From positions 1 to 43,011 of the forward strand of contig NZ_JADEXP010000011.1 of the NCBI RefSeq assembly GCF_015207065.1: a DNA stretch of 43,011 nucleotides. The letters run 5' to 3'. Under the pieces are notes generated by a model. It did not search any database and was not told where the DNA came from. It saw nothing but the letters and a program-made list of their open reading frames with translations. Below, one piece after another: positions 8,896 to 29,800 of the stretch. The position numbers were made by a program, and so were the translations under genes. Within the stretch, counting starts at the first letter, position 1, and each line of letters begins with the position of its first letter. Source of the DNA: Leptolyngbya cf. ectocarpi LEGE 11479. GTDB taxonomy: Bacteria > Cyanobacteriota > Cyanobacteriia > Phormidesmidales > Phormidesmidaceae.

Positions 8896-9050
8896 AATTA
8901 GCTGATTTTTTGCAAGATCTATCACTCCAGGGTGTCAAGTTATGGGCAGATGGTGATCGTCTTCGCACGGCTGGTTCTCAGACAGTGTTGACCTCTAATG
9001 TGGTTGAACAGCTCAAGCAACACAAAAGCGCTATCTTGCAGCTGCTCCAC
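8892..9050 (+). other. TubC-type N-terminal docking domain
   Basis: MKLADFLQDLSLQGVKLWADGDRLRTAGSQTVLTSNVVEQLKQHKSAILQLL matches the G(V/I)xLWxxGDxLR...L(T)xxxxxxLxxxKxxILxLL pattern of beta-hairpin docking domains at the N termini of NRPS subunits. Confidence 0.8.
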
Positions 9051-12000
9051 GAGCATCCAAATGTCCTCAACGTTCATCCATTGTCCCATGGTCAACGGGC
9101 GCTTTGGTTTTTGTGGCAGCTAGCCCCAGAAAGTTCTGCGTATAATTTTTCGTTTACAGCACGTATCCATACCGCAATAGATGCGGATACGTGGCGCTCT
9201 CTTTTTCAAATATTAGTTGAGCGCCATTCGATTCTGCGATCTACATTCCCCAATCGTGATGGCGAGCCTTTTCAGCACATTCATCTAAAGCAGGCCGTAG
9301 ATTTCGCTACTATTGATGCATCAACGTGGAGCAATGGACAACTCAATCAAAATCTGATTGCCATCAGCGAAGCTCCGTTTGACCTGGAAACAGAATCTGC
9401 TATGCGAGTAAAATGGATTACTCGCTCGGCCCAAGAGCATGTGTTGCTAATTGTGGCCCACCATATTGTCTTTGATGGTTGGTCGCAGTCTATTCTTTTC
9501 AAAGAACTTGCAACTCTCTATAGAGCTTCCCTGACGGGGAATAACAATGACCATCATACTAGCGCGCACTATTCTAGTAATGGTCATGGCACCAATGGCT
9601 TTAGCACCAATGGTCATAGAATTAATAACAATATTGCTACAGCGCTTGCTCCGCTCGAGCATACCTATCAAGACTATGTAGAGTGGCAAAAATATCTCCT
9701 AGAGAGTGATAAAGGAGAGCAGCTATGGCAGTACTGGCAACAGCAGCTAGCGGGTGATTTACCGATCTTAAATCTACCTACTGACCACCCGCGCCCTCCT
9801 GTAAAAACCTATCGGGGGGCGATGCAGTCCTTTCAGCTAGCGGAGTCTCTCACTCAACACCTGAAAGAATTAGCAAAAACCTCGGGAGTGACTCTTTATG
9901 TGCTTCTGATGGCTGCTTTCCAGATACTGCTACACCGGTATTCTGGTCAAGAAGATATTCTAATAGGATCGCCCTCCCTTGGACGCAGTCAGCTGAAATT
10001 TTCTGAAATTGTGGGCTACTTTGTCGATCCCATGGTTCTCAGGGCGGATCTGTCGGGCAACCCCACGTTTAGCTCATTTTTAACTCAGGTGCGTCAGACA
10101 GTTTTAGATGGTTTAGCCCATCAAGATTATCCGTTTGCTCTGCAGGTAGAACAGCTGCAGCCCCGTCGAGATCCAAGTTACTCACCTATTTTTCAAGCCT
10201 GTTTTACCTATTTGGTGCCACTGCAGGATGCTAAGGGGGAAATTGATTGGGGTGAGCTGGGATTTGAGCCCTTTGAGCTGCCTCGAAACAGGAGTCAGTT
10301 TGACTTGCACTTAGAAATGTCGGAGGTAGATGTCTCTTTGGTTGGAGGGATTGAATATAGCACCGATCTCTTCAACCGAGAGTCAATTGAACGGATGGTG
10401 ACTCATTTCCAAACATTATTAGCTTCAATTGTTGCCAACCCTGAACAGAGGCTAAGGCAGCTTTCCTTGCTGCCAAAGTCAGAATATCAGCAGCAGCTGA
10501 TTGAATGGAATAATACGGTTACATCCTATCCAACAGCGCAATGTATCCACCAGTTGTTTGAAGCTCAGGTGGAGAGAACCCCAACTGCAGTAGCTGTAAA
10601 TTTCAATACGCAGCAGCTTACCTACCAAACATTAAACCAGCGGGCTAATCAGCTAGCTCATTATTTACAGACATTGGGAGTAGGTCCAGAAGTTCTGGTG
10701 GGTATTTACGTAGAGCGCTCCCCCAATATGATGGTGGGATTGTTGGGGATTCTTAAGACTGGGGGAGCCTATGTTCCTCTCGATCCCGGCTACCCAAAAG
10801 AGCGAATAACATACATGCTTCAGGACTCTGCAGCCTCTGTGGTGCTGACTCAGCAAACATTGGTGGCAGATTTACCCGATGTTAGTGCTCAAGTTATTTG
10901 TCTTGACACGGACTGGGCCAAAATTGCTGACGGCAGTGATAAAAATGTTAAAGGTGATGCACAGCCCGCTAATTTGGCCTATGTCATCTACACTTCGGGT
11001 TCTACAGGCCAGCCTAAGGGGGTTGAGATCCTGCATCAAGGGTTAATGAACTACCTGTGCTGGTGTACTCAAACCTATCGTGTTTCCGAGGGGGCGGGTG
11101 CATTAGTTCATTCCTCTATCGGGTTTGATGCGACCATTACCGGCCTATTTTCACCGTTGCTGGTTGGAAAAACGGTCTTTTTACTGCCAGAGGATGAGGG
11201 GATTGAGGGGCTGGCCGCAGCGTTACAGACAGACAACAATTTTAGTTTGGTGAAATTAACACCAGCCCACCTTAAGGCGCTTGGCTCTCTCATTCCGGTA
11301 AAACGCCTAACTCAACAGACGAGGGCCTTAGTGATTGGGGGAGAAGCCTTAGTAAAGGATGTGATTGCTCCCTGGTTGATCCATGCTCCAAATACCCGAT
11401 TAATTAATGAATATGGACCGACGGAAACAGTGGTGGGCTGCTGCATTTATGAAGTTGACTCCTATGAGAGTCTCACAGAGCCTATTCCCATTGGTCGCCC
11501 CATTGCCAATACCAAACTCTATATCTTAGATTCTCAACTACAGCCACTGCCAACAGGTGTTCCAGGAGAATTATGCATCGGTGGAGAGGGTGTAGCTCGC
11601 GGCTATAGAAACCGACCAGAGTTGAGTGCTGAGAAATTTATTAGCAATCCTTTTGGCTCAGGGCGTCTCTATAAGACGGGGGATCTAGCCCGCTATCGCC
11701 CGGATGGCAATGTTGAATATCTGGGTCGAATTGATCATCAGGTAAAGATTCGGGGATTTCGGATTGAATTGGGCGAAATTGAGGCTATCCTCAACGATCA
11801 TGCTCAGCTTCAGCAGGCAGTGGTCATTGCTCGAGAAGATCACACTGGAGATAAACAGCTGGTAGCTTATGTGGTCAGCACATCTTCTCTTATTCCGGAG
11901 GAGCTACGAGATTTTTTGAAGGCACAGTTGCCAGAATATATGGTGCCAGATGTGTTTGTGCAACTGCCAGATTTGCCCCTGACCGCTAATGGAAAAGTTG

Positions 12001-15000
12001 ATCGCAAAGCTCTTCCTGCACCGGAGAGACTATTGACAGATGTTGACGATACTTTTGCTGCTCCCCAAACATCTGAGCAAAAACTGATTGCAACTATTTT
12101 CAGTGATGTTCTCAAGGTTAGTCCTGTGGGACTTCATCAGTCGTTTTTTGAACTGGGGGGGCATTCTTTACTGGCAACTCAGCTGATTGTGCGGTTGCGA
12201 GAGGCTTTTGATGTAGATATTTCCCTGAAGCTTTTATTTGAAGCGTCTACGGTAGAAGGCTTGGCGAGTGCGATCGCAGCTCAAAGCCAGCTAACATCCC
12301 ATTCTAAAAATCTACCTCAGATCCAGCCTGAACCTGAACACATCAACCGTCCCTTTCCCCTCAATGATATTCAGCAAGCCTATTGGCTAGGGCGCGATGC
12401 AAGTTTTGATCTTGGGAATGTTGCCACACAGATTTACATTGAACTTGACTGTCAGGATCTTGACCTAGATCGCTTAGACAAGTCGCTACAACGCCTAATT
12501 CAGCACCATGCGATGCTAAGGGCGGTGATTTTACCAGCCGGTAGTCAGCAGATTTTGCCAGAGGTTCCAACCTATAAAATTGCCATCACCGATCTATCCG
12601 ATCTAGGTACTGAGCGCCAGACTCGTCAGCTTGCCACAATTCGACAAAACCTCTCCCATCGCATGCTCCCAGCCAATCAGTGGCCACTATTTGGCATCAA
12701 AGCTACCCGCTTAGGAGCAAAGAAGACTCGGCTTCATCTTAATTTTGATGCTCTCCTTGCTGATGCAGCCAGTCTGCAGCTTTTAGGGCACCAATGGATA
12801 CAGCTATATAATACTCCCGAAATGGAGTTTTCTACCTTAAAGCTATCGTTTCGAGATTATGTGCTAGCTGAACAGCAGCTACAAACCAGTGAAAAATATC
12901 AACAAGACGAGCACTATTGGTTTTCTCGCCTCGATAGTCTGCCACCAGCCCCTGAACTACCCTTAGCAGTTCAGCCCAATCAGATTGAGAATCCTCGTTT
13001 TCAGCGGCGTAGCTATCGGCTGAATCCAGAGCACTGGCAAATCTTGCAAGTTCGTGGAAAGCAAGCCGATCTGACACCTTCCGGAATCTTATTGGCAGCT
13101 TTTTCTGAAGTCCTAAGTCTATGGAGCCGTCAAGCTCACTTTACGCTAAATCTAACTACATTTAAGCGTTTACCTCTGCATCCCGAAGTCAACGATATCG
13201 TAGGTGATTTCACCTCATTGACACTCTTAGAAGTCGATTTTCGTCAACAGTTAACCTTTGAAGAACGAGCTCGGAGATTACAAAAGCAACTATTTGAAGA
13301 CTTAGATCATTTGCAATGTAACGGTATCCGTGTTTTAAGAGAACTGACACGTCACCATAGCACTCAGAAACAAGTGGCTATGCCAGTGGTCTTCACTAGT
13401 ATTCTTGGACTTCGCTCAGCCAGTGAAACCAGCAATCGTCATGATATTACTGATCTCGGAGAGGTCGCCTATAGTGTTTCTCAAACACCTCAAGTATGGC
13501 TAGACCATCAGGTATCTGAAGACCAAGGCGCTCTTGTCTTTAGCTGGGATACGCTTGAAGCCTTATTTCCAGCAGGCATGATAGATGCAATGTTTGCCAC
13601 CTATTGCAGATGGCTAGAGCAACTGGCTACGGACGAGACGGCTTGGCACCAAACAAGACGGCATCAGCTATTGCCAAAAGCGCAACAGAAGCAGCGAGCT
13701 GAGAGCAATAACACTACAATTCCCATAAGACCGACTCTACTCCAAGAGCTGTTTACAGATCAGCTACCCCAGCGATTTGAACAACCAGCGGTCATCGCGC
13801 CAGACTGTTCTATAACCTATGGACAGCTGGCCCAAATGGCCCAATGCTTAGGCCAAAAGCTTCAGCAACAGGGTGTTCAGAGCAATACCCTAGTAGCTAT
13901 TGTTCTAGAGAAGAGCTGGCTTCAGGTGGTTGCTGTGCTAGGTAGTTTAATATCAGGTGCCGCCTATGTGCCAATTGACCCGCAGCAACCGCGTCAACGC
14001 CAACAGCAGATTTTAGAACAAAGTCAGGCAGAACTGATTATCACCCATAGCAGCTTGATAGACCAGATTGGTGTGGAAGCCAGCCATCAAATATGGGCTT
14101 TAGATCAGCTAGTCACCCTAGGTCAAGCAGAACCTCTGTCCGCCTGGGACTGGGTTCAAAAACCTGACGATCTAGCCTATGTGATTTTCACCTCCGGGTC
14201 CACCGGTAAACCCAAAGGAGTTGCGATCGATCATCGTGGAGCAGTTAATACTCTGCTCGACATCAATCGTCGCTTTTCAGTGACTTCTCAAGACCGAGTT
14301 TTAGCTCTATCAGCTCTCAACTTTGACCTATCCGTATATGACATCTTTGGGATACTAGCAGCCGGTGGCACAATCGTGATGCCTGAACCGCAGCATGTGA
14401 AAGAACCTGCTCACTGGCTGACTCTGATCCGCCAACATCGAATTACGCTTTGGAATACAGTACCGGCTCTAGCTCAAATGCTGGCAGATTATCTCAGTCA
14501 TGAAAAGGCTCCCCTGCCGAGCAGTTTACGCTTAGCGTTGTTAAGTGGAGACTGGTTGCCGTTGGATTTGCCGGGTAAGCTACAGCAGCTGTGGACAGAT
14601 ATCCAGATCAACAGTTTGGGAGGAGCCACAGAGGCCTCTATCTGGTCTATTACCTATCCAATTGATGTTGTAAATCCCGATTGGAAGAGTATTCCCTATG
14701 GAAAACCTCTGGCAAATCAGACATTTGCGGTTTTAAATGATCAATTCGATCCCTGTCCAGTCTGGGTTCCTGGCGACTTATACATTGGTGGCATTGGTCT
14801 AGCGATTGGTTACTGGCAGGACCAAGCCCGTACAGCAGCTAGTTTCATTAACCATCCGGTCACAGGCGAGCGGCTCTACAAAACTGGAGATCTAGGCCGT
14901 TATTTTCCTGATGGCAACATTGAGTTTTTGGGACGCAAAGACTTTCAAGTTAAAATCAGAGGCTTTCGTGTCGAACTGGGAGAGATTGAAGCCACACTCA

Positions 15001-18000
15001 ATCAACATCCTGCTGTTAAGCAAACGGTGGCTAATACTGTTGGAGAGTCTCTGAACCGGCAATTAGTAGCCTACGTTGTGGCTGAATCAGAGTCAGCTGC
15101 AGTTAATCTGGCTGAAGCTCACGATCCAAGTCAATTAGCTGATGTGATTCTCGATCCTGTGGAGCGGATTGAGTTCAAGCTGAGTCAGCCTGGATTAAAG
15201 AATTCTGTGCCCAGCAGTCAGGTCATTCAATTATTAAAACCTGTCTTCGATGGAGACTTAGAACAGCGCTATTTAGTCCGTCAGAGTTATCGCCAATTTG
15301 CCTCAGATTCGCGCTCTCGAGCTTCACTTGAGCAGATGCTAGTGGCGCTGACTCGTTCTGCCTCTGTTTCCAAACCATCTACACTATCTGACACAACAAC
15401 AACGTCTCTTCCCCTGTCTCTAGAAAGCTTATCCAAAACCCTTAGCAGCCTGATGGGATTTTTGATTGAGGGTGCTCCTCTACCCAAATATCTCTATCCC
15501 TCAGCCGGAAACCTTTATCCCGTTCAGCTGTATTTACGTGTTACTGATGGCGCCATTGCCGATGTTGCTGCTGGAGTCTATTATTATCATCCTCTCAACC
15601 ATACTCTAATCAAGCAAAAGGAAGGACGTATTGATTCAGCTGTATCTCTGCCGAAAAAGTTGACTAACCCTGGCGTTGAGCTATTTCTGATCGGACAACT
15701 CCCTGCGATTAAACCTCTATACGGTCGGCTAGCAGATACTTTTTGTGCTCTAGAAGCAGGATATATGCTGGAGGTACTCCGACACACTGCTACAGAGCAA
15801 AACCTCAGTTTTACGATCCCCTCCCGCTCTACTCCAGAGCTAATCCAGGCACTAGGGCTCGATCCTCAGCAGCATTTACCCTTGCTGCAGTGTGTCCTAT
15901 CGTCTCAAGACAGTTCAGCGGTCATGTCCTCTGGATTAGCTCTTAAATCATGGTTTGAGGAGTCGGACCCATTACAGCTATACCTCTACTTGAAGCCAGA
16001 TCACTGGGATGACCTAAAAGGCGGAATGTATCGGTATGATCCTGACTCACAAGCCCTGACGGCGTTATCTAGCGACGCACAGCTGAGCGGGACTATCTAC
16101 GGTGGTAATCAGCCTATTTTCGATCAAGCTAGCTTTAGTCTCTTTTTGGTAGCCCCGTCTGCAAATACACACATTCCAGAGTCCCTGGGCAGTTCTTCTC
16201 GGACAAAAGAACTGCTAAAAGCAGGTATGTGGGGACAAACATTGATGCTTGCAGCCCCCCACCATCAACTGGGGCTGTGTCCTATTGGCTATCTGCCTGA
16301 AAAAGAGATTGTCCATTCACTTCAACTAGAGCGTCATCAGCACGTTGTTCATAGTTTTTTGGGCGGTGGTATTGAGGTAACAGATCGGCAGCAGTGGCTA
16401 GCTTTTTCAACTAAACCGACGGTAGTGACGGCGGCAGAACAGCTGCGCCAGTTCTTACAAGAACGATTACCCGCTTATATGGTCCCTGCCATCTTTATGT
16501 CTATCGAGGCAATCCCTTTAACCGCTAATGGGAAAGTTAATCGCCAAGCCCTCCCTGTTCCTGTTTTAGAAACCGGTGCTCAGCTAGAGTATAGTTCCTT
16601 AAAAACGCCTACCCAGGAAATTATTGCAAATTTGATTGAATCAGTACTGAGAGTTGGTCCCATTGGCCTCCGCGATAACTTCTTTGAACTGGGTGGTGAT
16701 TCTCTGTTAGCAACCCAGCTCATTGTTAGACTACGTGCTGCCTTTGACTTAGAGATTCCTCTACGAAACTTGTTTGAATTTCCGACAGTATTTGAGCTGG
16801 AGCAGCAGATACAGCAGATACGCCAAGAAGACTTGAGGTTAACACTGCCTCCCATTACGCCAGTAGTTCCAAGAGATGGCCAACAATTACCACTATCCTG
16901 GGGACAGGAACGTTTATGTTTTTTAGATCAATTGGAGGGACCCTCAGCTACTTATAACGTACCCGCTGCGGTGCATCTATCTGGTCATCTAAACATAACT
17001 GCTCTAGAGCAGGCATTTAATTACATTGTCCAGCGCCATGAAATTTTAAGAACCCGCTATCCCATAGTAGATGGTTCACCGGTTCAAGAAGTTGTTCCAG
17101 ACATGGCTATAACTCTGATGATACAGCGTCAGGGGAATGACTTGAGCCTAGACGACTGGCAAGCTCGAATAGAGAAAACTATTCAAAAAGAGGCACGAAC
17201 CCCGTTTGACTTGGCGACAGGACCCTTGTTGCGAACTGGTCTTCAGCAATATTCTGACACAGAGTCTGTGTTACTGATTACAATGCATCATATTATTGCT
17301 GATCGCTGGTCCGTCGGTATTTTTGTTCAAGAGATGGCTGAACTCTATCGTGCTTATATCAAGGGCCGGGAGCCGTCTCTTGCTCCGATGGCTATTCAGT
17401 ATGGAGACTATGCCCTGTGGCAGCGACGCTGGTTGCAGGGAACAGTTTTGGAAAAACAGTTGGACTATTGGCTAGAACAGCTGGCTGATATGCCCACTCT
17501 CTTACAGCTACCAACGGACTATCCTCGACCTGCGGTACAGAGCTATCGAGGGGCTCATCACAGTTTTCACCTGAGTCTAGACTTGACCCGGCAACTAGAA
17601 CAGTTTAGTCAGAGGTCGGGGGTAACGTTATTTATGACTCTGTTAGCAGGATTTGGCGTATTGCTTTCTCGCTACAGTGGTCAATCTGATCTATCTATCG
17701 GTTCTCCCATCGCTAATCGAAACCAAGCTGGAATTGAACCTTTAATTGGCTATTTCTCCAATACCCTAGTACTGCGTTTACAGCCTGAAGATGACCTCAG
17801 TTTTACTCAGTTTCTACAACGGGTACGGGAAATGACTCTGGACAGCTATGTCCATCAAGATGTGCCATTTGAGCAGCTGGTAGAGGCATTACAACCGAAG
17901 CGTTCATTAAGTCACGCGCCTTTATTCCAGGTCATGTTTTTGTTGCGTACTGCTCCCCATACGGAGCCTGAAATGCCCGGGCTAATCTTAACCTCGTTAG

Positions 18001-21000
18001 CATCTGATACGCCAACCACAAAGGTTGACTTGACCCTGGCGATGACTGTAACAGACGCTGGTCTAGAATGCAGCTGGCAATACTCCACTGATTTGTTTAA
18101 GTCAGAAACAATAGAGCGGATGTCAGTTCATCTACAGCGATTGCTAGAGTCGGCGGTAACCATGCCAGACCAATCACTGTCTCGCTTGCCACTATTGCAG
18201 GATACGGAACAGTATCAGCTGTTACAGCAATGGAATGATACGGCGGTTGAGCCTTTTCAGCCGCAGTGTATTCATCAGCTCTTTACGACTCAGGTTGCTA
18301 GGGTGCCAACTGCGATCGCAGTAATTTATGAAGGGCAGCAGTTAACCTACCAAGAATTAGATCAACGATCTAATCAGGTCGCTCACTATCTTCGGGCACG
18401 GGGAGTAGAACCAGGCACACTTGTGGGTATTTGCTTGGAACGCTCCCTAGACATGGTGGTGGGGTTGTTGGGGATTCTTAAAGCGGGTGGAGCTTATGTG
18501 CCGCTTGATCCGGGCTATCCTCAAGAGCGGCTGACTTATATGCTACAGGACGCCGCAGTCTCTGTGTTACTGACTCAAGAGAGTCTGAGGAGCGTAGTGC
18601 CGGCTCAAGCGGCTTCAGTGATTTGTTTAGATGCAGACTGGCCCAAAATTGCTAAACATAGTGTGCATTCTATTGAGGGCCCAGTACAAACGGATGATTT
18701 AGCTTATGTGATCTACACCTCTGGGTCTACTGGCACGCCGAAGGGAATTATGATTTCCCATGCCTCGGTCTATAATTACACGACGAGTATTACGGCTGAG
18801 CTAGCCCTAGAAGATTGCCAGAATTTTCTACTGTCGTCCACCCTAGCTGCAGATCTGGGGAATACGGTATTGTGGCCAGCGTTATGTGGAGGCAAGTGCT
18901 TGCATTTGCTAGCTGAGGAGAAAGCGGTTGATGGAGCCCTATTTGCCAATTATCTAACCGACCATGCCATAGATGTGGTCAAAATTGTACCTACTCACTT
19001 GGCCGCTTTGCAGGCAGCCACCAACGTTCAGCATAGAGTCCTACCCCGCAAGCGTTTGATTTTGGGAGGAGACATTACGCGAGTTGCCTGGGTGCAACAG
19101 CTGCAACGGTTAGCACCTGGTTGTTGGATTGTTAATCACTATGGCCCGACAGAAACGACGGTGGGAGTGCTGACCCATCGCTTTCAGACAGAAACGGCTA
19201 CTACTGATCAAGCCAGCCTACCCATTGGCCGACCTCTGGCGAATACACAGATTTACATTTTGGACACTCATTTACAGTCTGTTCCTATCGGTGTAGCTGG
19301 GGAGCTATGCATCGGTGGAGCAGGCTTGGCCCAGGGCTATCTTAATCGCCCAGAACTAACGGCCCAAAAGTTTATTGCTAATCCCTTGATCGATTCTGGG
19401 TTAGCTCGTCTTTATAAAACAGGTGACCTGGCTCGTTACCTGCCAGATGGCACGATTGAATTTCTGGGTCGTATCGATCATCAGGTAAAGGTTCGGGGTT
19501 TTCGAATTGAACTGGGCGAAGTGGAATCGATTTTACTAGGCCATGCTGCTGTGCAACAGGCGGTTGTGGATATTTGGGAAGAGGTTCCTGGTAACAAACG
19601 TCTGATCGCCTACTGGGTGAGTCAGGATCCGACTTTAACACCTGGCAATTTGCGTAGCTGGTTACAGGCAAAACTTCCGGATCATATGGTTCCTGCTGCT
19701 TGTATTCAGTTGGAGACATTGCCTCTGACAAAGAATGGAAAAGTTGACCGACAAGCTCTGCCTACTCCTGATTTAAATAGACCAAAAGGCAACGCTTTTG
19801 CTCCTCCCCAAACAGTGCTCCAATGTCGCCTCGCAGATATCTGGAAACAGGTTCTTAGGATTGATCAGGTTGGTTTACATGATAATTTCTTTACCATTGG
19901 TGGAGACTCTATTCTCAGTATCCAAGTAGTCTCTCGTTCTAGACAGGCTGGGATTGATCTTAAGGCTAAGCAAATTTTTCAGTATCAAACGATTGCTGAA
20001 CTGGCTAGGGTCGTTGACTTCAAGCAAGGTCTAGAGATTCCACAAACACGTGCTAGTGGCCATGTTCCTCTCACGCCGATTCAGACTCGGTTTTTCGCTC
20101 AGAATTGGTCAGAGCCCCATCATTTTAATCAGGCTGTTCTGTTGTCTGTATCCCGTCATCTTAATCTGCAATACTTAGAGGCGGCTTTAGCTACTCTATT
20201 TGAGCACCACGATGCTCTGCGTCTGAGGTATATATTTGAGGAGCAAGAATGGCAGCAAATCTATGGTGATGCGCCAAGTCCATTACCGTTAGAAGTTGTT
20301 GATCTAAGCCACCATCGTAATCGAGAATATCAGTTGAAAGTACTGGCAAGCTTAGCAGACAAGTATCAAGCTAGCCTTAATTTAAATGATAGCTGTTTGA
20401 TGCAGGGGATGTTATTCCAGCTAGGAGACACGCAAGGGACTCCTGAAGCACGTCTGCTATTGATTGTCCACCATTTAGTAGTAGATGGCGTATCTTGGCG
20501 TATTTTGCTGAGTGATCTGGCGTTGGCCTATCACCAAATTGAGCAGGGACAGTCTGTGCAGCTACCGGCTAAGACCAGCTCATTCCAAATATGGTCACAA
20601 CACCTGCAGTCCTACGCCCAGTCCGATGAGTTGCGTCGTCAGATGGAACACTGGTTAAACCAGCCTTGGGCTCGGGTGCAGTCAATGCCAGTCGATTATG
20701 ACCAAAATTTGCATCTGAACCAGGTGGCTAGTCAAGTAACAGTCGATTTTACGTTAAGTCAGACGGAAACTCGTCAGCTGCTGCGTGATGTTCCAGCGGC
20801 TTACAATACTCAGATTAATGATATTTTGTTGACTGCTCTGGTTCAGTGTCTTCAGAGTTGGATGGACAATTCTGTGGTGCTGATTAATCTGGAGGGGCAT
20901 GGTCGTCAGGTTGAATTATTTGAAAACCTCGAAATTTCTCGTACGGTTGGTTGGTTCACTAGCTTGTTCCCAGTTGTTCTGCAATTGCAACCTCAAGCAG

Positions 21001-23861
21001 ATGTGGCTACTGCTATCAAATCGATTAAGGAGCAGCTGCGACAAATACCCAATGCGGGTATTGGGTATGGTATCGCGCGCTATTTGAGTGAAGATTCGGC
21101 CCTTCGTGAACAATTGACGGCGTTACCTGAAGGACAAATCAGTTTTAACTACCTGGGCCAGTTTGATGAGCAATTTGACGGAGGTAGTCAAGCAAGCATA
21201 GCCCATGGAGACGTTGCTATTCCAGCGTTGGGACAGCCAGCTTTGGAGGCGAGTGGTGGAGTACGCAGTCCTCAAGCTCCTCGCTCTCATTTGCTAGATG
21301 TCAGTGCTTTGGTGGTCAAGGAGCGGTTACAGGTGAGCTGGATCTACAGCCGCGAGATCTATGAGCAGGCTACGGTGGAGAGATTGGCCCACCGTTATCA
21401 AGAGGCTTTACAGGGGCTGATTTACCATTGTCTATCTCCAGCTACAGGAGGGTATACACCTTCGGACTTTCCCGGCACCGAGTTGAGTCAAGAGAAGTTG
21501 GATAAACTGTTAGCTACAGTAGGGCAACCTACTGTAGAGAGTATTTATCCCCTGTCTGGCACCCAACAAGGATTATTATTCCATGCTCTTTATACCCCTA
21601 ACTCTGGCGTTTACCTAACTCAAACGGTGGTGACCATTGAGGGAGCCGTGGATGTGATAGCACTAAGGCAAACATGGCAGGCGTTAATGAACCGCCATGG
21701 CTGCTTACGCACTGTCTTTGCATGGGAGACTTTAGATCAACCTCTGCAGATTGTTTGTCCAACGTTTGAATTGCCTTGGACTGAGTTAGATTGGCGCAAT
21801 TTAACCGCGAAATTGCAGGAACAGCAGTTAAATAGTTTGCTGGAGCAACAGCGAGAACAGGGCGTGGATCTTACTCAGGCTCCGGCGATTGCATTACATC
21901 TAATCCAGGTGGCCGATCAGCGGTATCACTTAGTTTGGAGCCATCACCATATTTTGATGGATGGCTGGTGTTTGCCGGTTTTGTTCCAGGAGATGCTGAC
22001 GTTTTATCAAGCCTATCGCGGTGGACACGTCTGCTCTTTAAAGCTCCCTCGGCCTTATCAGGACTATATTCAGTGGTTGCAGCGTCAAGATATGGCGGCA
22101 GCGGATACTTTCTGGAGAGAAATGTTGCAGGGAGTGGAGGCTCCTACACCGTTGCCGTTTGAGCAGTTAGGGCTGCACCATCAGTCTACTGCGGGTTTTG
22201 ATGAGCAGCAGATAGAGTTTTCTCCAGCGTTAACCCAGGCACTGCAAACGTTGGTCCAAGCTCAGGAAATGACCTTGGCTAGCTTTATTCAGGCAGTCTG
22301 GGGGCTGTTGCTCGGTCGCTATAGTGGTGACTTGGATGTGGTATTCGGGGTGACGGTTTCAGGCCGTTCTGGAGAGCTAACCGGGGTAGAAACGATGGTG
22401 GGTTTATTTATCAATACCCTGCCGTTAAGGGTGTCAATGTCCCATGATGAGAAACTGTTGCCTTGGTTACAACGATTACATCGGCGTCAGCTAGAGCTAC
22501 AGAACTATGCCTATAGTGCTTTGGCGGATGTGCAAAAGTTGAGTGATATTGAAGCGGAGATGCCGTTATTTGAGAGCATATTTGTCTTTGAGAATTACCC
22601 GGTAGAAGCAGCTGTACAGGAACAGGCAGCTGCGTTAGGACTATCGTTCACAGGGTTAAGAAATTATGAGCAGACAAGTTATCCGTTGACGTTAACGGCC
22701 ATTCCGGGAGAGCGCCTGCAGCTAACGGTAAGCTATGATACGAGCCGATTTAGTAAGGAGGCGATGGAACGGTTGCTGGGGCATTGGCAGGTGATGTTGG
22801 CTGCGATCGCAGCCAATCCTCATCAGTCTCTCGGCGAGATTCCACTGCTCACGGCGGCGGAGCGTCATCAGCTCTTAGTGCAGTGGAACGATACAACGTT
22901 TGACATTCCCCAAGACAAGTGCATCCACCAACTATTTGAGGCTCAAGCAAGGAAAACCCCCAGCGCCATTGCTGTGGCATTTGAGGATGAACAGCTTAGC
23001 TATGGCCAGCTAGAGGCTCGAGCCAATCAGCTAGCCCATCGCTTACGAGAACTTGGAGTAGAGCCTGAGGTATTAGTTGGACTTTGTGTCGAACGTTCTA
23101 TCCATCTAGTTGTGGGTATGTTAGGCATTCTCAAAGCGGGAGGTGTCTATGTGCCACTGGATTCAACCTATCCCAGTGAGCGTCTGAGCTACATGCTTAA
23201 CGACACGTCTGTGGACATTTTGCTCACTCAGCGTTCTTTAACCGAGCGCTTACCTACAAGCCAAGCCAAGATTATTTACCTGGATGATGATACCGCACTA
23301 TTAACACCATCATCTGATATTTCATCGTATTTAGATTGTTTAGCACAGCCCAGAAACTTGGCCTATGTTATCTACACGTCAGGGTCAACGGGTAAACCCA
23401 AAGGAGCCATGGTTGAACATCTCGGATGTATCAATCACTGCTATGCCAAATGGCACGATCTCTCTTTGACTCATACGGATATTATTGCCCAGACCGCTCC
23501 CATTGGTTTTGATATCTCTGTTTGGCAAACTCTGACAATGTTACTAATTGGTGGCAAGGTTGAAATTATTCAAACCGATACGGTTAGAGATCCAGAACGG
23601 CTTTTTGCAGAAGTGCAGGTGCGAGAAATATCAATTCTCCAAGTTGTACCCTCTCTGTTGAGAATGATGCTGGAAATTTGCGATCGCTCCGGTCCACCAC
23701 AGCTAAAAAATCTTCGTTGGCTAGTGGTGACTGGCGAAGCTTTTCCAACAGAATTACGTGATTGGTGGTTTACTTATTATCCCGATATTCCTCTTGTCAA
23801 TGCCTACGGTCCTGCTGAATGCTCTGATGATGTCACTCATCAATTGATTTACCATCATTAA
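8892..23861 (+). CDS. NRPS-1 (4989 aa): docking / C-A(Asn)-PCP / Cy-A(Cys)[Ox]-PCP / C-A(Asp)-PCP-E / C-A(N-terminal fragment, ends after core A5)
   Basis: The motif series is listed under the domain features. The ORF stops 13 codons after [12 protein letters not shown] (core A5), with no A6-A10 motifs and no carrier for the fourth module. Confidence 0.95.
   Translation: [4989 protein letters not shown]
9072..10470 (+). other. Condensation domain C1 (accepts the 3-hydroxyacyl chain from ACP2)
   Basis: [22 protein letters not shown] (9459-9479); YQDYVEWQ; carries a 34-aa Asn/His/Gly-rich loop insertion (9540-9641). Confidence 0.9.
9576..9620 (+). repeat. Three tandem 15-nt units inside the C1 loop insertion
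   Basis: agtaatggtcatggc / accaatggctttagc / accaatggtcataga encode [15 protein letters not shown]. The string aatggtcat recurs at 9579 and 9609, and accaatgg at 9591 and 9606. Confidence 0.8.
10540..12020 (+). other. Adenylation domain A1, predicted Asn
   Basis: Motifs [68 protein letters not shown]. Stachelhaus positions read by eye: D235 A236 T239 (GFDATIT), K278 (VKLTPA), V299 G301 (LVIGGE), E322 (NEYGPTE), V330 G331 (TETVVG), K517. This gives DATKVGEVGK, the canonical Asn code. Confidence 0.85.
12062..12278 (+). other. PCP1
   Basis: [19 protein letters not shown]; Ser codon 12165-12167. Confidence 0.9.
12345..13640 (+). other. Heterocyclization (Cy) domain
   Basis: [16 protein letters not shown] (Cy1), and DxxxxDxxS in place of HHxxxDG: [11 protein letters not shown] (12746-12772). 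Confidence 0.9.
13745..16560 (+). other. Adenylation domain A2, predicted Cys, interrupted between A8 and A9 by an oxidase insertion
   Basis: [62 protein letters not shown] (A8, about 14950-14990); after the insertion LPAYMVP (A9) and NGKVNR (A10, about 16530). The code read by eye is DLYNLSLIWK, the canonical Cys code. Confidence 0.9.
15150..16380 (+). other. FMN-dependent oxidase (Ox, nitroreductase/SagB-like) insertion for thiazoline to thiazole oxidation; unusually long
   Basis: [10 protein letters not shown], and the NRPS-Ox signature KYxYxSxGxxYPVQ present exactly as [14 protein letters not shown] (about 15485-15526). It is followed by GVYYYHP and ALEAGYML. A second partial repeat of the fold spans about 15965-16378. 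Confidence 0.85.
16599..16812 (+). other. PCP2
   Basis: [19 protein letters not shown]; Ser codon 16701-16703. Confidence 0.9.
16885..18190 (+). other. Condensation domain C3 (LCL-like)
   Basis: [18 protein letters not shown]; active-site motif [10 protein letters not shown] (17285-17311; Arg where HHxxxDG has Gly); [10 protein letters not shown]. Confidence 0.9.
18265..19765 (+). other. Adenylation domain A3, predicted Asp
   Basis: [54 protein letters not shown]. The code read by eye is DLTKIGHVGK versus canonical Asp DLTKVGHIGK (8/10 identical, with V/I swaps). Confidence 0.8.
19804..20016 (+). other. PCP3 (E-domain-partner type)
   Basis: [17 protein letters not shown]; Ser codon 19908-19910. 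GGDSI is the form usually found upstream of epimerization domains. Confidence 0.9.
20060..21440 (+). other. Epimerization (E) domain
   Basis: [26 protein letters not shown] (20469-20510); [15 protein letters not shown]. Confidence 0.9.
21535..22860 (+). other. Condensation domain C4 (DCL type)
   Basis: [16 protein letters not shown] (DCL N-terminal signature); [19 protein letters not shown]. Confidence 0.9.
22925..23858 (+). other. Adenylation domain A4, N-terminal fragment (core A1-A5 only)
   Basis: [14 protein letters not shown] (A1), [11 protein letters not shown] (A2), [16 protein letters not shown] (A3, about 23372-23405), GFDISVWQ (A4), [12 protein letters not shown] (A5, 23799-23834), then [8 protein letters not shown]-stop. 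Pocket residues read by eye: D235 I236 W239 Q278 V299 T301 A322 D330 D331. Confidence 0.9.
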
Positions 23862-23977
23862 CGTGCTCATTTTTTTGAGGCCCTACTCATAACTTGAAAA
23901 AGCATTAGCCACAGCCAAGTTTCTATCAACTATAGAGGCGCGACAATAACGCTTCTAAACAAAATCAAATATTTCTG

Positions 23978-23989
23978 TTTTCTAGAAAA
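23978..23989. promoter_or_regulatory. Perfect 12-bp palindrome TTTTCTAGAAAA upstream of the sbnA-like gene (function unknown)
   Basis: Self-complementary 12-mer in the 170-bp AT-rich spacer. A TATATT hexamer follows at 24011-24016, 16 nt before the ATG. No clear -35 element. Confidence 0.25.
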
Positions 23990-24031
23990 TTTACGTTGTA
24001 ACTCAGTTTTTATATTTGGAGCCTTGCAAAA

Positions 24032-25084
24032 ATGAAAAATATGCCTGACAGCATTACATCACGGCTCGCACCAGACAAGATTACTATTCAACATCGCCGT
24101 TGCGAACCCAGAATTTACAATAATATTACCGAGTTGATTGGCAATACTCCTATCGTTCGGTTAGGTCAAATGTTTTGTGGATACAACATATTAGCAAAAT
24201 TAGAGGGATATAATCCAATTAGCTCTATCAAAGACCGGGTTGCTTTTTATATGCTTAAACGTGCTACAGAACGAGGTTTTATTAGTTCTGACACCGTTAT
24301 TATCGAAAGTACATCAGGTAACTTTGGGCTTGGCATGGCAGCAGCCTGTCAGTTCTATGGGTTAAGGTTTATTGCTGTTGTTGATCCTAAAATTTCTAGA
24401 ATAAATTTGAGATTGTTGGAGCTACGGGGGGCTGAAATTGATATGGTGCGTGAGCCTGATGAAACAGGTAACTATTTATCACGACGCATTCAGCGTATAC
24501 AAGAACTTCGCAAAGAAATACCTGATAGCTTTTGGCCCTGTCAGTATCGTTCACCGGATAACCCTAACGCTCATTATTATGATACTGGTCAGGAAATCAT
24601 CAGCCAGCTGAATGGCCATCCTTTAGATTATTTTTTAGCTTCAGTGAGTACGACAGGCACTATATCAGGGATTAGTCGCCGTCTCAAGGAAGTTTATCCA
24701 CAGCTCCAGGTGATTGGTATTGACGAAGAGGGATCTGCATTATTTGGCGGTCAATCAGGTCCCAGATTTTTAAATGGTATGGGCGCGGGCTATCCGATTC
24801 CAGAGTTGGCAGAAGAAACTCACCGGCAACAAAGCGTCGATCAGATTATTCGCGTGAAGGCCTCTGAAGGTATTGAAGCCTGTAACCAGCTGTTGAAGTG
24901 TGAAGGAGTTATGGCAGGTGGGTCTGGCGGAGCCGTGATTGCTTCTTTGAAAAAACTGTTGCCTAGAATTCCATTAAAAAGTAATGTCCTAGTTATTTTG
25001 CCAGATCGAGGCGAACGATATTTAGATACCTTTTATAACAAACGCTGGGTTGAGGACAATATAGATAACACGAAACAGAAATAA
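24032..25084 (+). CDS. sbnA: PLP-dependent SbnA-like N-(2-amino-2-carboxyethyl)-L-glutamate synthase (cysteine-synthase fold); first step of L-2,3-diaminopropionate synthesis
   Basis: IGNTPIVRL, PLP-Lys in NPISSIKDR, ESTSGNFGLGMA, AVVDPKIS, SVSTTGTISGISRRLKE, ILPDRGERYLD. Long colinear matches to S. aureus SbnA as I recall it (VVDPKIS, DYF.A.VSTTG, ILPDRG.RYLD). GGAG lies 10 nt upstream of the ATG. Confidence 0.88.
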   Translation: MKNMPDSITSRLAPDKITIQHRRCEPRIYNNITELIGNTPIVRLGQMFCGYNILAKLEGYNPISSIKDRVAFYMLKRATERGFISSDTVIIESTSGNFGLGMAAACQFYGLRFIAVVDPKISRINLRLLELRGAEIDMVREPDETGNYLSRRIQRIQELRKEIPDSFWPCQYRSPDNPNAHYYDTGQEIISQLNGHPLDYFLASVSTTGTISGISRRLKEVYPQLQVIGIDEEGSALFGGQSGPRFLNGMGAGYPIPELAEETHRQQSVDQIIRVKASEGIEACNQLLKCEGVMAGGSGGAVIASLKKLLPRIPLKSNVLVILPDRGERYLDTFYNKRWVEDNIDNTKQK

Positions 25085-25159
25085 TGATAAAGGGAGTTTA
25101 TTAGCTTAGTTATATAGCCTTACGTTGTTATCTCAAGTCTAACTATATTAGGTTTTTCT

Positions 25160-26167
25160 ATGGAACGGATTCTCTACCTTAGCCAATCTGATATTAAGCA
25201 ATTAGGCGGTGCATTTTCTCCTCTTTATGTTGAGGCCGTTAGTCAGGCCTTAATTTTACATGCCCAGCAAGATGTTGTTCAACCTTTAAAGCCATATTTG
25301 CGCTGGCGCGGGGACGCTGGACACATTGCTGATCGGATCATTGCTATGCCAGCTTATATCGGTGGCCGTGATCCGGTGGCAGGACTGAAGTGGATCGGTA
25401 GTAAACACGATAATCCAACTAGTCGAGGACTGGAGCGGGCCAGTGCCCTGATCACGCTGAACGACCCTGAATCCCATTATCCCATTGCTGTGATGGAAGG
25501 TAGTCTGGTGAGTGGTATGCGGACAGCGGCGGTGAGTGCGATCGCAACCCGCCATCTAGCCAAGAGCGATTTTAGCCACGTTGCCTGTGTTGGCTGTGGA
25601 GTCATTGGCCGGATGCAGTTATCCACATTGCTAGAACAGTTTCCGTCAATTACAACTATCCACTTATTTGACTTAAATAGCTTAGCGGCTAAACGCTTAG
25701 CAGAGCGTCTCCAACAGCAGTTCCCAAAAACCGAGTTCAAAATCGCAGCGAATGCCGAAGCGGCTGTAGGTAAAGGTGAGGTGGTCATTTTCTGCACCGT
25801 CACTGATAAACCCTACGTTCCCTATAGCTGGTTGCAACCCGGTACGTTTGTCAGTAATGTTTCCATCATGGACTTGCACAAGGAAGTCTTTCTTAAGGCA
25901 GATAAGGTAGTTGTAGACGATTGGGAACAGTCTAACCGCCAAAAGAAGATTATCAATCAGTTAGTACTTGAAGGAAGCTTCTCTCGCGAGCAGCTCCATG
26001 CAGAATTAGGCGAAATTTTGACCCAGCGACGGCCAGGACGAGAATCCAGTGACGAAATTATTGTCCTGAATCCTATGGGCATAGCCATTGAAGATATCGC
26101 CTGCGCCCAAGCCATCTACCAAAAGGCGATCGCAGCTGGTATTGGCACTTGGCTGCCCCTATACTAG
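25160..26167 (+). CDS. sbnB: SbnB-like NAD-dependent ornithine-cyclodeaminase-family dehydrogenase; second step of L-2,3-diaminopropionate synthesis
   Basis: VQPLKPYLR, GHIADRIIAMPAYIGG, GLKWIGSKHDNP, YPIAVMEGSLVSGMRTAAVS, GCGVIG, KADKVVVDDWEQ, INQLVLEG, NPMGIAIEDI. Near-colinear with S. aureus SbnB as I recall it. Confidence 0.9.
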   Translation: MERILYLSQSDIKQLGGAFSPLYVEAVSQALILHAQQDVVQPLKPYLRWRGDAGHIADRIIAMPAYIGGRDPVAGLKWIGSKHDNPTSRGLERASALITLNDPESHYPIAVMEGSLVSGMRTAAVSAIATRHLAKSDFSHVACVGCGVIGRMQLSTLLEQFPSITTIHLFDLNSLAAKRLAERLQQQFPKTEFKIAANAEAAVGKGEVVIFCTVTDKPYVPYSWLQPGTFVSNVSIMDLHKEVFLKADKVVVDDWEQSNRQKKIINQLVLEGSFSREQLHAELGEILTQRRPGRESSDEIIVLNPMGIAIEDIACAQAIYQKAIAAGIGTWLPLY

Positions 26168-26251
26168 TCCTCTCCTACATGATTTTTTCCTACCTAACCG
26201 CTAACTCACAAATGCTTTCTGTTCATCATAAATAATTGCCAAGCCAATTCC

Positions 26252-26835
26252 ATGAAATTTAGAACTGTTCCTGTTGGACGACCGGTTATCAACACCCAGA
26301 TCTACATCCTTGATACCTATCTCAATCTTGTTCCTGTGGGTATCGAAGGCGAACTATATGTGGCGGGTGTAGGTGTGGGTCGAGGTTATCTCAATCGTTC
26401 AGGGCTAACAGATGAACGATTTATCCCCAATCCATTTTCGACTATAAATGATTTAAACCATAGTCGTCTTTACAAGACGGGCGATCGAGCCCGCTATCTG
26501 CCTAACGGCACCATTGAATTTCTCGGGCGTATCGATCACCAGGTCAAGGTGCGAGGATTTCGTATTGAACTGGGCGAAATCGAAGCCGCTTTATTAAGTC
26601 ATTCCCATGTGCAGCAAGCTGTTGTTATTGATCGCGAAGACAATCTTGGTGACAAACGACTGGTTGCCTATATGGTGTGTGAAGCTCCCTTGCCTGCTTG
26701 CTCCACAAATTGGTCCGAATTTCTGAAAGCGCAGCTGCCAAGTCATATGATTCCCAGTGCTTTTGTCGAACTAGAGGCTTTGCCTCTAACCCCTAACGGC
26801 AAACTTGATCGACGGGCACTGCCAATGCCAGACAC
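26252..26835 (+). other. Adenylation domain A4, C-terminal fragment (core A6-A10)
   Basis: GELYVAGVGVGRGYLNR (A6), YKTGDRARYLPNG (A7), GRIDHQVKVRGFRIELGEIE (A8), LPSHMIPSAF (A9), NGKLDRRAL (A10, supplies K517). Confidence 0.9.
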
Positions 26836-29800
26836 TGACTTGAGAGAGGCTGCTAATTTTGTTGCTCCTCGCACACCAACAGAAGAAATTACCGCCGATA
26901 TTTTTGCAGCTGTATTGGGACTAGAGACTATCGGTATTCACAGCAATTTCTTTGAATTTGGCGGTCATTCTCTCTTAGCAACGCAAGCAATATCAAAGTT
27001 GCGCGGGGCATTTCAGGTGGAACTACCCTTGAGAGATTTGTTTGAAGCACCGACAGTGGCTGAGTTGGATCAGCGTATTCATCAAGCCCTGACCTGTGAG
27101 CAATCGCAACATAAGCTTGTTCCCATTACAGCTATTTCCCGAGAGAAGAGCTTTCCATTTCCACTTAGCTGGTCTCAAGAAAGACTGTGGTTTCTAAATC
27201 AGTTAGAAGGAGCCAGCAGGGCTTACAACATTCCCATAGTGCTGAAAGTTGAGGGCTCTCTTAATCTAGATGCGTTGGCATGGGCAATGCAGAGCGTAGC
27301 TGAACGTCACGAGATTCTGCGCACTACCTTTCACAATCCAGATGGGCAGCCGATACAGATCGTTTCTCCAACTGCTGCATGCTCAATTCCATTGGAAGAC
27401 TTCACAACAGTTCCAATGGAACAGCAACAGGATAGGGTGCACCAACGCATTCATCAAGCAGCAACAACTCCCTTTAATCTGACCGAGGGGCCTCTGTTGC
27501 GTATAAGCCTGTTGCATCTATTCGAAAAATCCTACGTTTTACTATTAGTTTTTCACCACAGCATCTTTGATGCCTGGTCAGGTGAGGTGTTTGTTCGAGA
27601 ATTAACGACATTTTATCAAGTCTATCAGTCACAGCCAGCGAAGGTTTCTCCCTTTCCCCCCCTGACTCATCAGTATGGTGACTATGCCTACTGGCAACGC
27701 CAGCATCTGAACGTTGTCTTAGAGCCTCAACTCAAGTACTGGCAACAGCATCTGTCGGGCACTTTGCCAGCTTTAAATTTCCCCACAGACTATCCTCAGT
27801 CAGCCCAACCCGAATATCAAGGAGCCCGATGTTCTCGACAGCTATCAGTCTCATTAAGCACGGCACTGAAAACCTTATGTCGAGAAGAAGACGTCACGCT
27901 ATTTATGGCCCTACTAGCCGCACTAAACCTGTTGCTAGCTCGCCATACCGATCAGACAGACATCATCATAGGAGCGCCAATTGCTGGACGCCAACATCCA
28001 GGCACTGAAAACTTGATTGGTTTCTTTGTCAATCTATTACCCCTACGTATTGATTTATCAGAGATCATTACATTTCGAGAGTTACTGGCTCATGTGCGTG
28101 ACGTAACGTTGGCAGCTTACAGCAATCAGGATGTCCCCTTTGAAAAGCTGGTGGAGGTTTTACAACCAGAACGTGCTCTAAATCGTCATCCTGTTTTTGA
28201 TGTCATGCTAAATTTTCTCCAGACTTCCATGGCCCCTCCCAAGGTGAGTGGTTTGGAGCTAACTCCTTTAGAAATGCCGGATATGGCTTCTAAATTTTGG
28301 CTGACGTTACATGTAAGAGAACAAGAAAATTGTCTTCAGTTAGAACTAGCATATCGCCAATCACTGTTTTCAGCAGAGCGGATGGAAATTTTTCTAGCTC
28401 AGTTTGAAACACTGTTAGAGCAGATTGTATCGATGCCTAATCAGGCCGTACATCGGTATTCACTTCTGGTTGCTAACCCTCCGTGGAAACTGCCAGATCC
28501 GAGTGTTCCCTTGGTCGAATCCCCGTTTGAGCCCGTTTCAGCTTTAGTCATGGCTCAAGTGCGAAAGCACCCTGACAAGACTGCCATTACTCAGGCTGGA
28601 CAGTGCTGGACGTACCAAGATCTAATGGCTGAGGCGACTCGCGTTGCCGATCGACTGATCGACACTGGCGCACAGTCAGGCGATGTGGTGGCTGTATATG
28701 GAGAGCGAAACTTTGAATTCATTTCCAGTATCCTTGGCATATTCCTGAGTGGAACTGTACTGCTTACTCTAGATTCCAATTTACCAGAACAACGGCTGCG
28801 ACTGATGGTAGAGCAGGCTAAGGTTCGCTATTTGGTGATACTAGATAATGATCTGCCCAGACAATGGGTTCCCGATCCGGTTCACCTGTTAATGGAGAAG
28901 CCCACAGTAAAATCTCAGCAGACCGCTGTCAAGTCTGCGGCTATGGTTTCTGTGCAGATGTCTTCTTTACCTCAGGTTAAGGGCGATGATCCAGCCTATA
29001 TATTCTTCACCTCGGGTAGTACGGGTATTCCCAAAGGAGTGCTAGGTCTACATAAGGGTATTTCTCACTTCGTCAATTGGCAGCGAGATACCTTTGAGGT
29101 TGGCAGTGAGGATCGGGTTGCTCAGCTGATCCGTTTATCTTTTGATGCACTACTGCGAGATATTTTCTTACCGTTGACAAGCGGTGCGACTTTATGTCTG
29201 CCGACTGAGGATGAGTTGAGTCGCGATCGCATCTTACATTGGCTAGAACAAGAGAATATTTCTATTCTTCACACAGTACCTACAGTCGCCCAGTTCTGGA
29301 TAGCCAATGCTCCGAATATCATCAAGTTACCCGCTCTGCGACTCGCCTTTTTCTCCGGCGAGCCCCTAACCGCAAATTTCATTAGCCAATGGCGGCAAAC
29401 GTTTACCCCAGCCCATAATCTTATTAATCTTTATGGTGCTACAGAGACCACCATGGTTAAAACCTACTATCTAGTGCCTCAGCATCTACGTCCAGGCAGC
29501 CAGCCAGCAGGTTGGCCTCTGCCCCAAACCCAAACTTGGGTATTACGTGATAACGATCAACCCTGTGGCATTGGAGAAGTTGGCCAAATTGTCGTACGCA
29601 CACCGTTTCGTACCTTGGGATATATCAATGCAGATTCTGGTCAACCACCTTGCTTTAGACCAAATCCTTTCCGCTACGATCCTGATGACTTAGTCTACGA
29701 CACAGGCGATCGAGGACGATTTTTACCAGATGGCAGCCTGGAGGTATTAGGTCGTTTAGATAGTCAACTCAAAATCCGAGGTGTGCGCATTCAACCTGGA

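Follow-up and report, generated by a model that had tools for sequence, protein, structure and literature searches.

In a 43,011-nucleotide stretch of DNA from Leptolyngbya cf. ectocarpi LEGE 11479 (contig NZ_JADEXP010000011.1; "the window" below means this whole stretch), one adenylation (A) domain of a nonribosomal peptide synthetase (NRPS) cluster is divided between two proteins, NRPS1 and NRPS2, by a break between core motifs A5 and A6, and two complete genes, sbnA and sbnB, are nested in the gap. The same break is found in relatives, and the two pieces are probably the halves of a naturally split A domain that works as a non-covalent heterodimer, with predicted activity on L-2,3-diaminopropionate (L-Dap).

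Anatomy of the divided adenylation domain

NRPS1 comprises a TubC_N docking domain followed by C-A-PCP, Cy-A(Ox)-PCP, C-A-PCP-E, a further C domain and the N-terminal piece of a fourth A domain (C, condensation; PCP, peptidyl carrier protein; Cy, heterocyclization; Ox, oxidase; E, epimerization). NRPS2 begins with the remainder of that A domain. The features of the split module and of the gap are as follows.

8892..23861, + strand: NRPS1, 4989 aa, from the open reading frame (ORF) list, Pfam and motif map; identical to MBE9065558.1
21530..22847 (start approximate), + strand: condensation domain of the split module, on NRPS1, with HHILMDG at aa 4352 (motif map, Pfam)
22848..23861, + strand: N-terminal A piece (N piece), 337 aa, with A3, A4 (FDISVW) and A5 (NAYGPAE)
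23862..24031, + strand: spacer between NRPS1 and sbnA, 170 bp
24032..25084, + strand: sbnA, 350 aa, pyridoxal phosphate enzyme (PF00291; TIGR03945)
25160..26167, + strand: sbnB, 335 aa, NAD-dependent dehydrogenase of the ornithine-cyclodeaminase family (PF02423; TIGR03944)
26168..26251, + strand: spacer between sbnB and NRPS2, 84 bp, ahead of the NRPS2 start codon
26252..30445, + strand: NRPS2, 1397 aa, with C-terminal A piece, PCP, C, A and PCP; identical to MBE9065561.1
26252..26836, + strand: C-terminal A piece (C piece), about 195 aa, with A6, A7, A8 and A10
26897..27067, + strand: PCP of the split module (GGHSL), Pfam PP-binding at NRPS2 aa 216-272 and motif

NRPS1 ends 13 residues past the A5 motif YGPAE (stop codon at 23859-23861), and NRPS2 starts 7 residues ahead of VGRP, with an in-frame stop 18 codons upstream of its start and no ATG, GTG or TTG between. 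Core motifs A3 to A10, including the catalytic Lys of A10, are present in order, A3-A5 on NRPS1 and A6, A7 (YKTGD), A8 and A10 (NGKLDR, with K184) on NRPS2, where Pfam matched two AMP-binding stretches and AMP-binding_C and where the PCP of the split module stands in cis with the C piece. The A domain (PF00501 plus PF13193) is not encoded as one continuous polypeptide; its halves are parted by a stop, a new start in a different reading frame and a gap of 2390 bp. The NCBI annotation of LEGE 11479 has identical NRPS protein boundaries and carries no pseudogene flag. The positions and sequences that a first-pass annotation, made from the letters of the DNA, had given for the split, the gap genes and the A motifs all hold against the ORF map and the sequence. 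Its statement that nothing was deleted at the break stood in part: the count of 20 residues (13 + 7) between YGPxE and (I/V)GRP, against 21 in A1 and 23 in A3 of the same protein, is correct, but the better yardstick is the same loop in intact domains of the NAYGP[TA]ECSDDVTH clade, which has 22-23 residues. Because of that loop length, and because the joined halves align with LgrA module 2 (A2) without a gap, at most about 2 loop residues are missing from the split domain.

In an AlphaFold2 (AF2) model of the joined halves, made as one fused chain and not as two chains, the predicted two-subdomain fold is complete with no element missing (predicted local distance difference test (pLDDT) score 93.5, predicted template modelling (pTM) score 0.92). 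The last strand of the N piece is placed at model residues 330-334, and the junction residues 337/338 fall in a coil between this strand and the next (346-348) at a local pLDDT of 97-98. The best PDB match of the joined model was EntF, with a TM score of 0.91 and a root mean square deviation of 2.3 A.

The two gap genes, 75 bp apart, have their own starts and stops, are not fused in frame to the A domain and are the sole genes of the gap. SbnA and SbnB carry out the first and the second step of L-Dap synthesis, respectively. The products described as sbnA-like and sbnB-like in the first reading both reach NCBIfam equivalog cut-offs, with SbnA at 351.3 bits against TIGR03945 (just above the cut-off of 349.95) and SbnB at 403.2 bits against TIGR03944 (cut-off 326.9), and, the genes being adjacent, they were taken as the SbnA/SbnB pair for L-Dap. 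No A-domain or transaminase remnant was found in the three spacers by tblastn (all E > 0.2) or six-frame reading, which agrees with the earlier finding of spacers free of A-domain remnants. Terminators, promoters, repeats and Rfam families around the gap were not above background, and the absence of terminator-like sites from the spacers was counted as an operon signal in support of a working split domain.

Conservation of the break and the forms of its relatives

Relatives were sought as homologues of the first 290 aa of NRPS2, and their contigs were then inspected; a representative-protein search with the C piece was uninformative, its ranking being driven by the summed scores of giant multi-module NRPSs. 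The start point of the C piece is identical in L001, L002, L003-L008, L010 and L013 (contigs described below), and the same break is retained in at least four separate cluster types or assemblies. The homologue and synteny check proposed in the first-pass annotation thus revealed the same split conserved in Leptolyngbya and Symploca, plus metagenome contigs.

An ENA metagenome contig (L001) represents a relative at 77-84% identity, with an NRPS ending in DDVTHHLIYH before its stop, then sbnA, sbnB (93% identical to sbnB of the window) and the C-piece start; its cluster has one module more than that of the window. In six JGI samples (L003-L008), a giant PKS/NRPS ends in DDVTLHPIYHTEN and a stop, a 423-aa gene starts 5 bases later, and this is followed by a free-standing 283-aa C piece with PCP starting MKLKTIPVGRP and then by a protein with a TubC_N dock and a C domain. 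L010 has the same start in a 301-aa C piece with PCP, preceded by an ORF cut at the contig end. In L002, with the same ends, the gap is 4.7 kb and contains an insertion sequence (IS) element, a Cupin_8/JmjC gene and a 425-aa ectB-type gene ahead of MRFKTVPIGRP. The 423-425-aa gap product is an EctB-type L-2,4-diaminobutyrate (Dab):2-oxoglutarate transaminase (TIGR02407, 600-608 bits, cut-off 552). At L002:5357-8270, the IS element is made up of DUF4277 and DDE_Tnp_1, and the upstream NRPS has a 30-residue low-complexity tail, ENDNQSRENDNQSRGQ.

Symploca sp. SIO2C1 (L013, JAAHGL010000143.1) was found by scanning representative genomes with a start-junction pattern. Its upstream NRPS ends in DDVTHHLIYHSGYP before the stop, its downstream NRPS has the same split start, and both NRPS ORFs are open across the 8 kb examined. 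The gap (L013:3641-3861, minus strand) is 221 bp long and holds the last 37 codons of sbnB (tblastn E = 5e-12), a relic showing that sbnAB was once present and was then deleted with the split retained. A second match to the pattern, in a Planctomycetaceae metagenome-assembled genome (MAG), lay outside any ORF and was dismissed as chance, and the pattern had no match in a metagenome scan, whose collection apparently does not include the JGI samples known to carry the junction.

The ratio of nonsynonymous to synonymous substitution (dN/dS) was compared among the window, L001 and Symploca, giving 0.05-0.12 (N piece) and 0.09-0.17 (C piece) at a synonymous divergence (dS) of 0.7-2.4; the values for sbnA (0.086 vs L001) and sbnB (0.054) were comparable to those of the A-domain halves. 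At this saturating level of synonymous divergence both halves show purifying selection and, because all three compared lineages carry the split, were maintained long after the break arose.

Neighbour-joining trees were made for the N piece and the C piece separately, with bootstraps out of 100. In the N-piece tree the split domains are monophyletic (86/100) and fall into sbnAB (87) and ectB (82) sub-clades. The split clade is sister to L019 and L024 (99/100), and all of these are nested within the intact clade. The C-piece tree recovers the split clade at 62/100, with sbnAB and ectB sub-clades at 83 and 90, respectively. L019 and L024, two contigs from one sample (JGI Ga0233403_10000319 and Ga0233403_10001685), stood out in a scan of metagenome contigs for DNA of the A5-region motif, which otherwise returned mostly intact domains of other, mostly high-GC organisms. 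One uninterrupted ORF of more than 3600 aa at L019:3637-14477 shows the Pfam order AMP-binding, Aminotran_3, AMP-binding, AMP-binding_C and PP-binding, so that a complete EctB-like class-III aminotransferase, which shares 69% identity with the free ectB genes of L002 and L004, lies in frame between A5 and VPIG; an enzyme embedded in this manner is present in L019 and absent from the split domain of the window. L024 (minus strand, around 7439) has an A domain of the L019 type without the transaminase and with a 47-residue A5-A6 loop, which was read as a deletion scar because "IFTK", from the N-terminus of the transaminase, and the C-side linker of L019 are both retained in it.

Specificity-pocket positions were assigned by motif anchoring to PheA numbering, with D235 confirmed by the 1AMU match range and positions 278, 299 and 301 resting on the anchoring. 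All nine (235-331) lie on the N piece. The putative code is D-I-W-Q-V-T-A-D-D in the sbnAB group, D-I-W-Q-L-T-A-D-D in L004, L019 and L024, and D-I-W-E-L-T-A-D-D in L002. Asp-Asp occurs at positions 330 and 331 in all members and, judged from sequence, would suit a cationic side chain bearing an amine; the cargo is SbnA/SbnB (Dap) in one group and EctB (Dab) in the other.

Other apparent breaks were rejected. Short A-domain ORFs of other phyla (P0057 in L011, P0046 in L031 and P0131 in L032) come from frameshift-ridden assemblies and are not of this split type. P0087 (L033) reads NTYGPT-stop-TTVE at L033:3090-3160, where a single in-frame TAG replaces the A5 Glu in a high-GC NRPS; this is an ordinary nonsense mutation or sequencing error and stands in contrast to the conserved split.

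Proposed mechanism and rival explanations

In the proposed mechanism, the N piece at the C-terminus of NRPS1 would provide the ATP P-loop (A3), A4, A5 and the whole side-chain pocket, and the C piece at the N-terminus of NRPS2 would provide A6-A7 of the large subdomain and the small A8-A10 subdomain with the catalytic Lys, plus the PCP. The cut is predicted to lie in a surface coil between two beta-strands and, since nothing structural is missing, the two chains could pack along the domain's own internal interface. The reconstituted domain would most likely adenylate L-Dap supplied by the nested SbnA/SbnB and load it onto the PCP of NRPS2. With the C domain of the module on NRPS1 and its acceptor PCP on NRPS2, the interface of the split domain would be the only visible docking contact between the two proteins; no other docking element is visible at the NRPS1-NRPS2 junction. 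The arrangement appears to be inherited, with the A5-A6 loop of this A-domain lineage as a putative cargo site for precursor-supply enzymes, namely an EctB-type Dab transaminase, fused in frame or as a free gene, and sbnAB in the Leptolyngbya branch. A further proposal, made tentatively as possible rather than probable, is that the A5-A6 loop is a dedicated cargo site, that the pocket-bearing half travels with the substrate-making genes as a contiguous cassette, and that the A domain, once split into two chains, takes the place of a conventional pair of docking domains. The cargo would then occur as an in-frame fusion (L019) or as nested free genes (ectB; ectB with a JmjC gene; sbnAB), or would have been lost again (L024, Symploca).

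Several points weigh against a working split domain that activates L-Dap. The break ends carry no added docking peptide, and AF2, given an alignment of intact homologues, would be expected to fold the joined halves whether or not the chains associate. The proposed Dap specificity rests on gene neighbourhood and pocket charge, and DIWELTADDK, a putative Dab code of Pseudomonas lipopeptide synthetases, was not found in the literature searched. L019 and L024 do not adjoin the split clade in the C-piece tree (4/100), and for this reason the putative in-frame-to-split history is read from the N piece only; mosaic evolution of A domains is known, and the difference between the two trees fits it. In the ectB-type relative L010 (L010:816-1721, P0009) A7 reads YKTDD, not YKTGD, and a full-text search for strain LEGE 11479 found no paper on this cluster. 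Lastly, the arrangement is rare, the start-junction pattern having matched a single cyanobacterium in the set of representative genomes; the C-A(N) ORF of L009 is truncated and nothing follows it; Symploca has lost sbnAB from the gap; and L001 shows five reading-frame changes within 1.2 kb past the C piece (L001:4050-5200), which reflect either long-read indel noise or decay.

Rarity, truncation, cargo loss and frame changes would also suit a disruptive insertion, by which sbnAB or a predecessor killed a normal A domain and left a pseudogene cluster that has not yet eroded, and a recent event of this kind was held possible in the first-pass annotation. Such decay is hard to reconcile with a break kept across lineages at that synonymous divergence and at dN/dS of about 0.1 in both halves, with some 35 kb of intact ORFs in the window and with a monophyletic split clade carrying two cargo types, and accidental disruption looks otherwise, as in the plain in-frame TAG inside A5 of L033. 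The conserved split, the selection and the monophyly therefore make a recent insertion very unlikely. The halves could instead be kept for a non-adenylating role, with a vestigial or structural N piece, a PCP loaded in trans by another A domain or a module that is skipped, and a C piece that docks or presents the PCP. A break without a dedicated docking sequence speaks for this, as does Symploca, where the split has outlived sbnAB, so that domain and supply genes can be separated. However, the selection on both halves is purifying, nearly all members keep A3, A4, A5, A7, A8 and the A10 Lys, the Asp-Asp pocket matches a diamino-acid cargo in both sub-clades, and no free-standing A domain was found in the window (ORF list, Pfam); a non-catalytic role is disfavoured because the catalytic motifs are conserved, and we regard it as unlikely.

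A third kind of explanation is that the A domain is rejoined before use, by DNA excision as in heterocyst elements, by RNA splicing of an intron bearing sbnAB or by trans-splicing of the two proteins. Gene-interrupting excision elements and a split-intein DnaE are both known from cyanobacteria, but nothing in the window points to either. An excised element is not indicated, since the gap contains no recombinase gene and no flanking direct repeats beyond chance matches; a search of 23600-26500 against Rfam at E up to 1 gave no RNA family or intron match, group I and group II introns included; NRPS1 and NRPS2 are read in different frames; and the Symploca gap is a relic of 221 bp with the same stop and start. 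A split intein is likewise not indicated, as the ends sum to 20 loop residues against 22-23 in intact domains and bring no extra sequence, and the joined length, being already that of the intact loop, leaves no space for intein halves. Rejoining in any of these forms is scarcely credible. As regards an assembly or sequencing artefact, noisy assemblies do make false breaks elsewhere (L011, L031, L032), but nothing in favour of one was seen in this contig, and a 2.39-kb insert with two complete conserved genes is not an indel error; since independent assemblies (ENA, six JGI samples, NCBI MAG) share the same architecture, an artefact is excluded for practical purposes. The conserved break is thus probably a working design and not damage, and the earlier preference for a working two-piece A domain over decay is strengthened by the conservation, the purifying selection and the monophyly, with the adenylating activity itself as a prediction.

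A domains act as gatekeepers in nonribosomal peptide synthesis, and much engineering work is directed at finding sites that tolerate a cut, a swap or an interruption. A break conserved within the large subdomain would be a further permissive cut site, with all the pocket residues on one side and the mobile catalytic half on the other, and would show that two megasynthetases can be joined by the internal interface of an A domain, with no need of COM or docking domains. If the loop is indeed a cargo site, it would offer a cut site validated by nature for splitting NRPSs and for swapping specificity together with precursor supply. Precursor genes nested or fused at the same loop would link substrate supply to substrate selection, an arrangement not found described in the literature searched. 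Domain-based pipelines will label such modules as incomplete or broken. The analysis also provides a lead to an uncharacterised, predicted Dap-containing lipopeptide in LEGE 11479 and to Dab-containing relatives.

Cluster context and relation to known systems

The split module lies within a larger cluster, for which the following further features were recorded in the window.

1930..8895, + strand: loading/PKS (polyketide synthase) protein, FAAL-ACP-KS-AT-KR-ACP (Pfam)
30500-31231, + strand: Asp/Glu-type racemase (Pfam, NCBIfam)
31242-32273, + strand: TauD-family dioxygenase (Pfam, NCBIfam)
32366-36340, + strand: NRPS3, C-A-PCP-TE (TE, thioesterase; Pfam, NCBIfam)
37946-40405: 819-aa protein with a weak chlorophyllase/PETase-like hydrolase region (aa 261-409) and no NCBIfam match
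40402-42939, minus strand: 845-aa SbcC/Rad50-like protein

A major facilitator superfamily (MFS) transporter gene (Pfam/NCBIfam) is located downstream of NRPS3. All other domains of the cluster retain their catalytic motifs, as had been said of the downstream NRPS ORFs, and the Ox domain of module 2, a nitroreductase Pfam match at NRPS1 aa 2401-2486, lies between A8 and A10 as first described. The active-site motif deviates in two of the C domains, reading HHIIADR at NRPS1 aa 2799 (17286-17306) and HHSIFDA at NRPS2 aa 435 (27554-27574), and the second A domain of NRPS2 (28550-30000) has unusual but complete core motifs (NLYGATE, YDTGD, GRLDSQLKIRGVRIQPGEIE and SGKVDR). The 819-aa protein, directly past the MFS transporter, may be an acyl hydrolase acting on the lipopeptide, and the SbcC/Rad50-like gene on the opposite strand probably marks the cluster end. 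Cyanochelin was considered as the product and set aside, the papers on cyanochelins B and C making no mention of Dap, sbnAB or a split. In other contigs (L025-L030, from an Oculatellaceae MAG, Aphanizomenon sp. and others), every free sbnA-sbnB pair precedes a PF14518 haem-oxygenase-like gene and a transporter and has no NRPS in its vicinity; this neighbourhood may encode an undescribed route to a small molecule derived from Dap.

Coding regions parted by kilobases are known from the nifD, fdxN and hupL elements and the DnaE split intein, which the window resembles in this respect. Unlike these, it has no recombinase, repeat, intein or intron signature and its parts are in different frames; most likely, in contrast to excised-element or intein genes, they are never joined. 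SbnA and SbnB form the L-Dap pathway of staphyloferrin B. The nested genes resemble that pathway in reaching its equivalog cut-offs, and they are 72-75% identical to free cyanobacterial sbnB, but free sbnAB operons have ordinary neighbours, as in the sbnA-sbnB-PF14518 triad, whereas the pair in the window is located inside a domain-coding region.

Among A domains interrupted in frame, MtaG has a monooxygenase at A4-A5. Embedded M (methyltransferase) domains occur at a2-a3, a8-a9 and a6-a7, with M, Ox or KR as the embedded types, and a survey of interrupted A domains includes neither an a5-a6 site nor a transaminase (PMC8341866). The first-pass view that in-frame interruptions are placed at A2-A3 or A8-A10 therefore has to be widened to a6-a7 (PMC8341866). 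Interrupted A domains share with the present lineage a foreign enzyme-coding segment in an A-domain loop around which the domain folds, and L019 is exactly of this kind, an in-frame precursor-making cargo at a5-a6 that was not found in the literature searched. The site differs from the described a2-a3, a6-a7 and a8-a9; the cargo (EctB, SbnA/SbnB) makes the substrate instead of tailoring the bound residue; and the cargo genes of the window are translated on their own, with two chains making up the A domain.

The closest precedent is the corallorazine NRPS of Corallococcus coralloides, in which the A domain is encoded on two ORFs, Crz1 and Crz2, and is active only when both proteins are mixed (PMC11342130, 2024). 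This case, which its authors call the first experimental report of its kind, was the only split A domain found in the literature searched, and its activity on mixing sets a precedent for a two-ORF A domain in the window. The first reading knew of no described case in which a break inside the large N-terminal subdomain yields two proteins, and to its background this functional split A domain has to be added; Crz is split in another place, after an embedded N-methyltransferase in the A8-A9 region, on adjacent ORFs with nothing nested between them (PMC11342130). In both systems one A domain is spread over two ORFs of the same cluster, and the split parts the C domain and A core of the module from the PCP-bearing protein. 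Crz keeps the whole large subdomain on one chain, whereas the cut in the window falls inside it, at A5-A6, encloses 2.39 kb of precursor-supply genes and is conserved in a clade with an in-frame sister form; the function of Crz was demonstrated by experiment, and the case of the window is known here from sequence and models. The window thus presents a split/interrupted A domain with a new site, nested precursor genes and clade-wide conservation.

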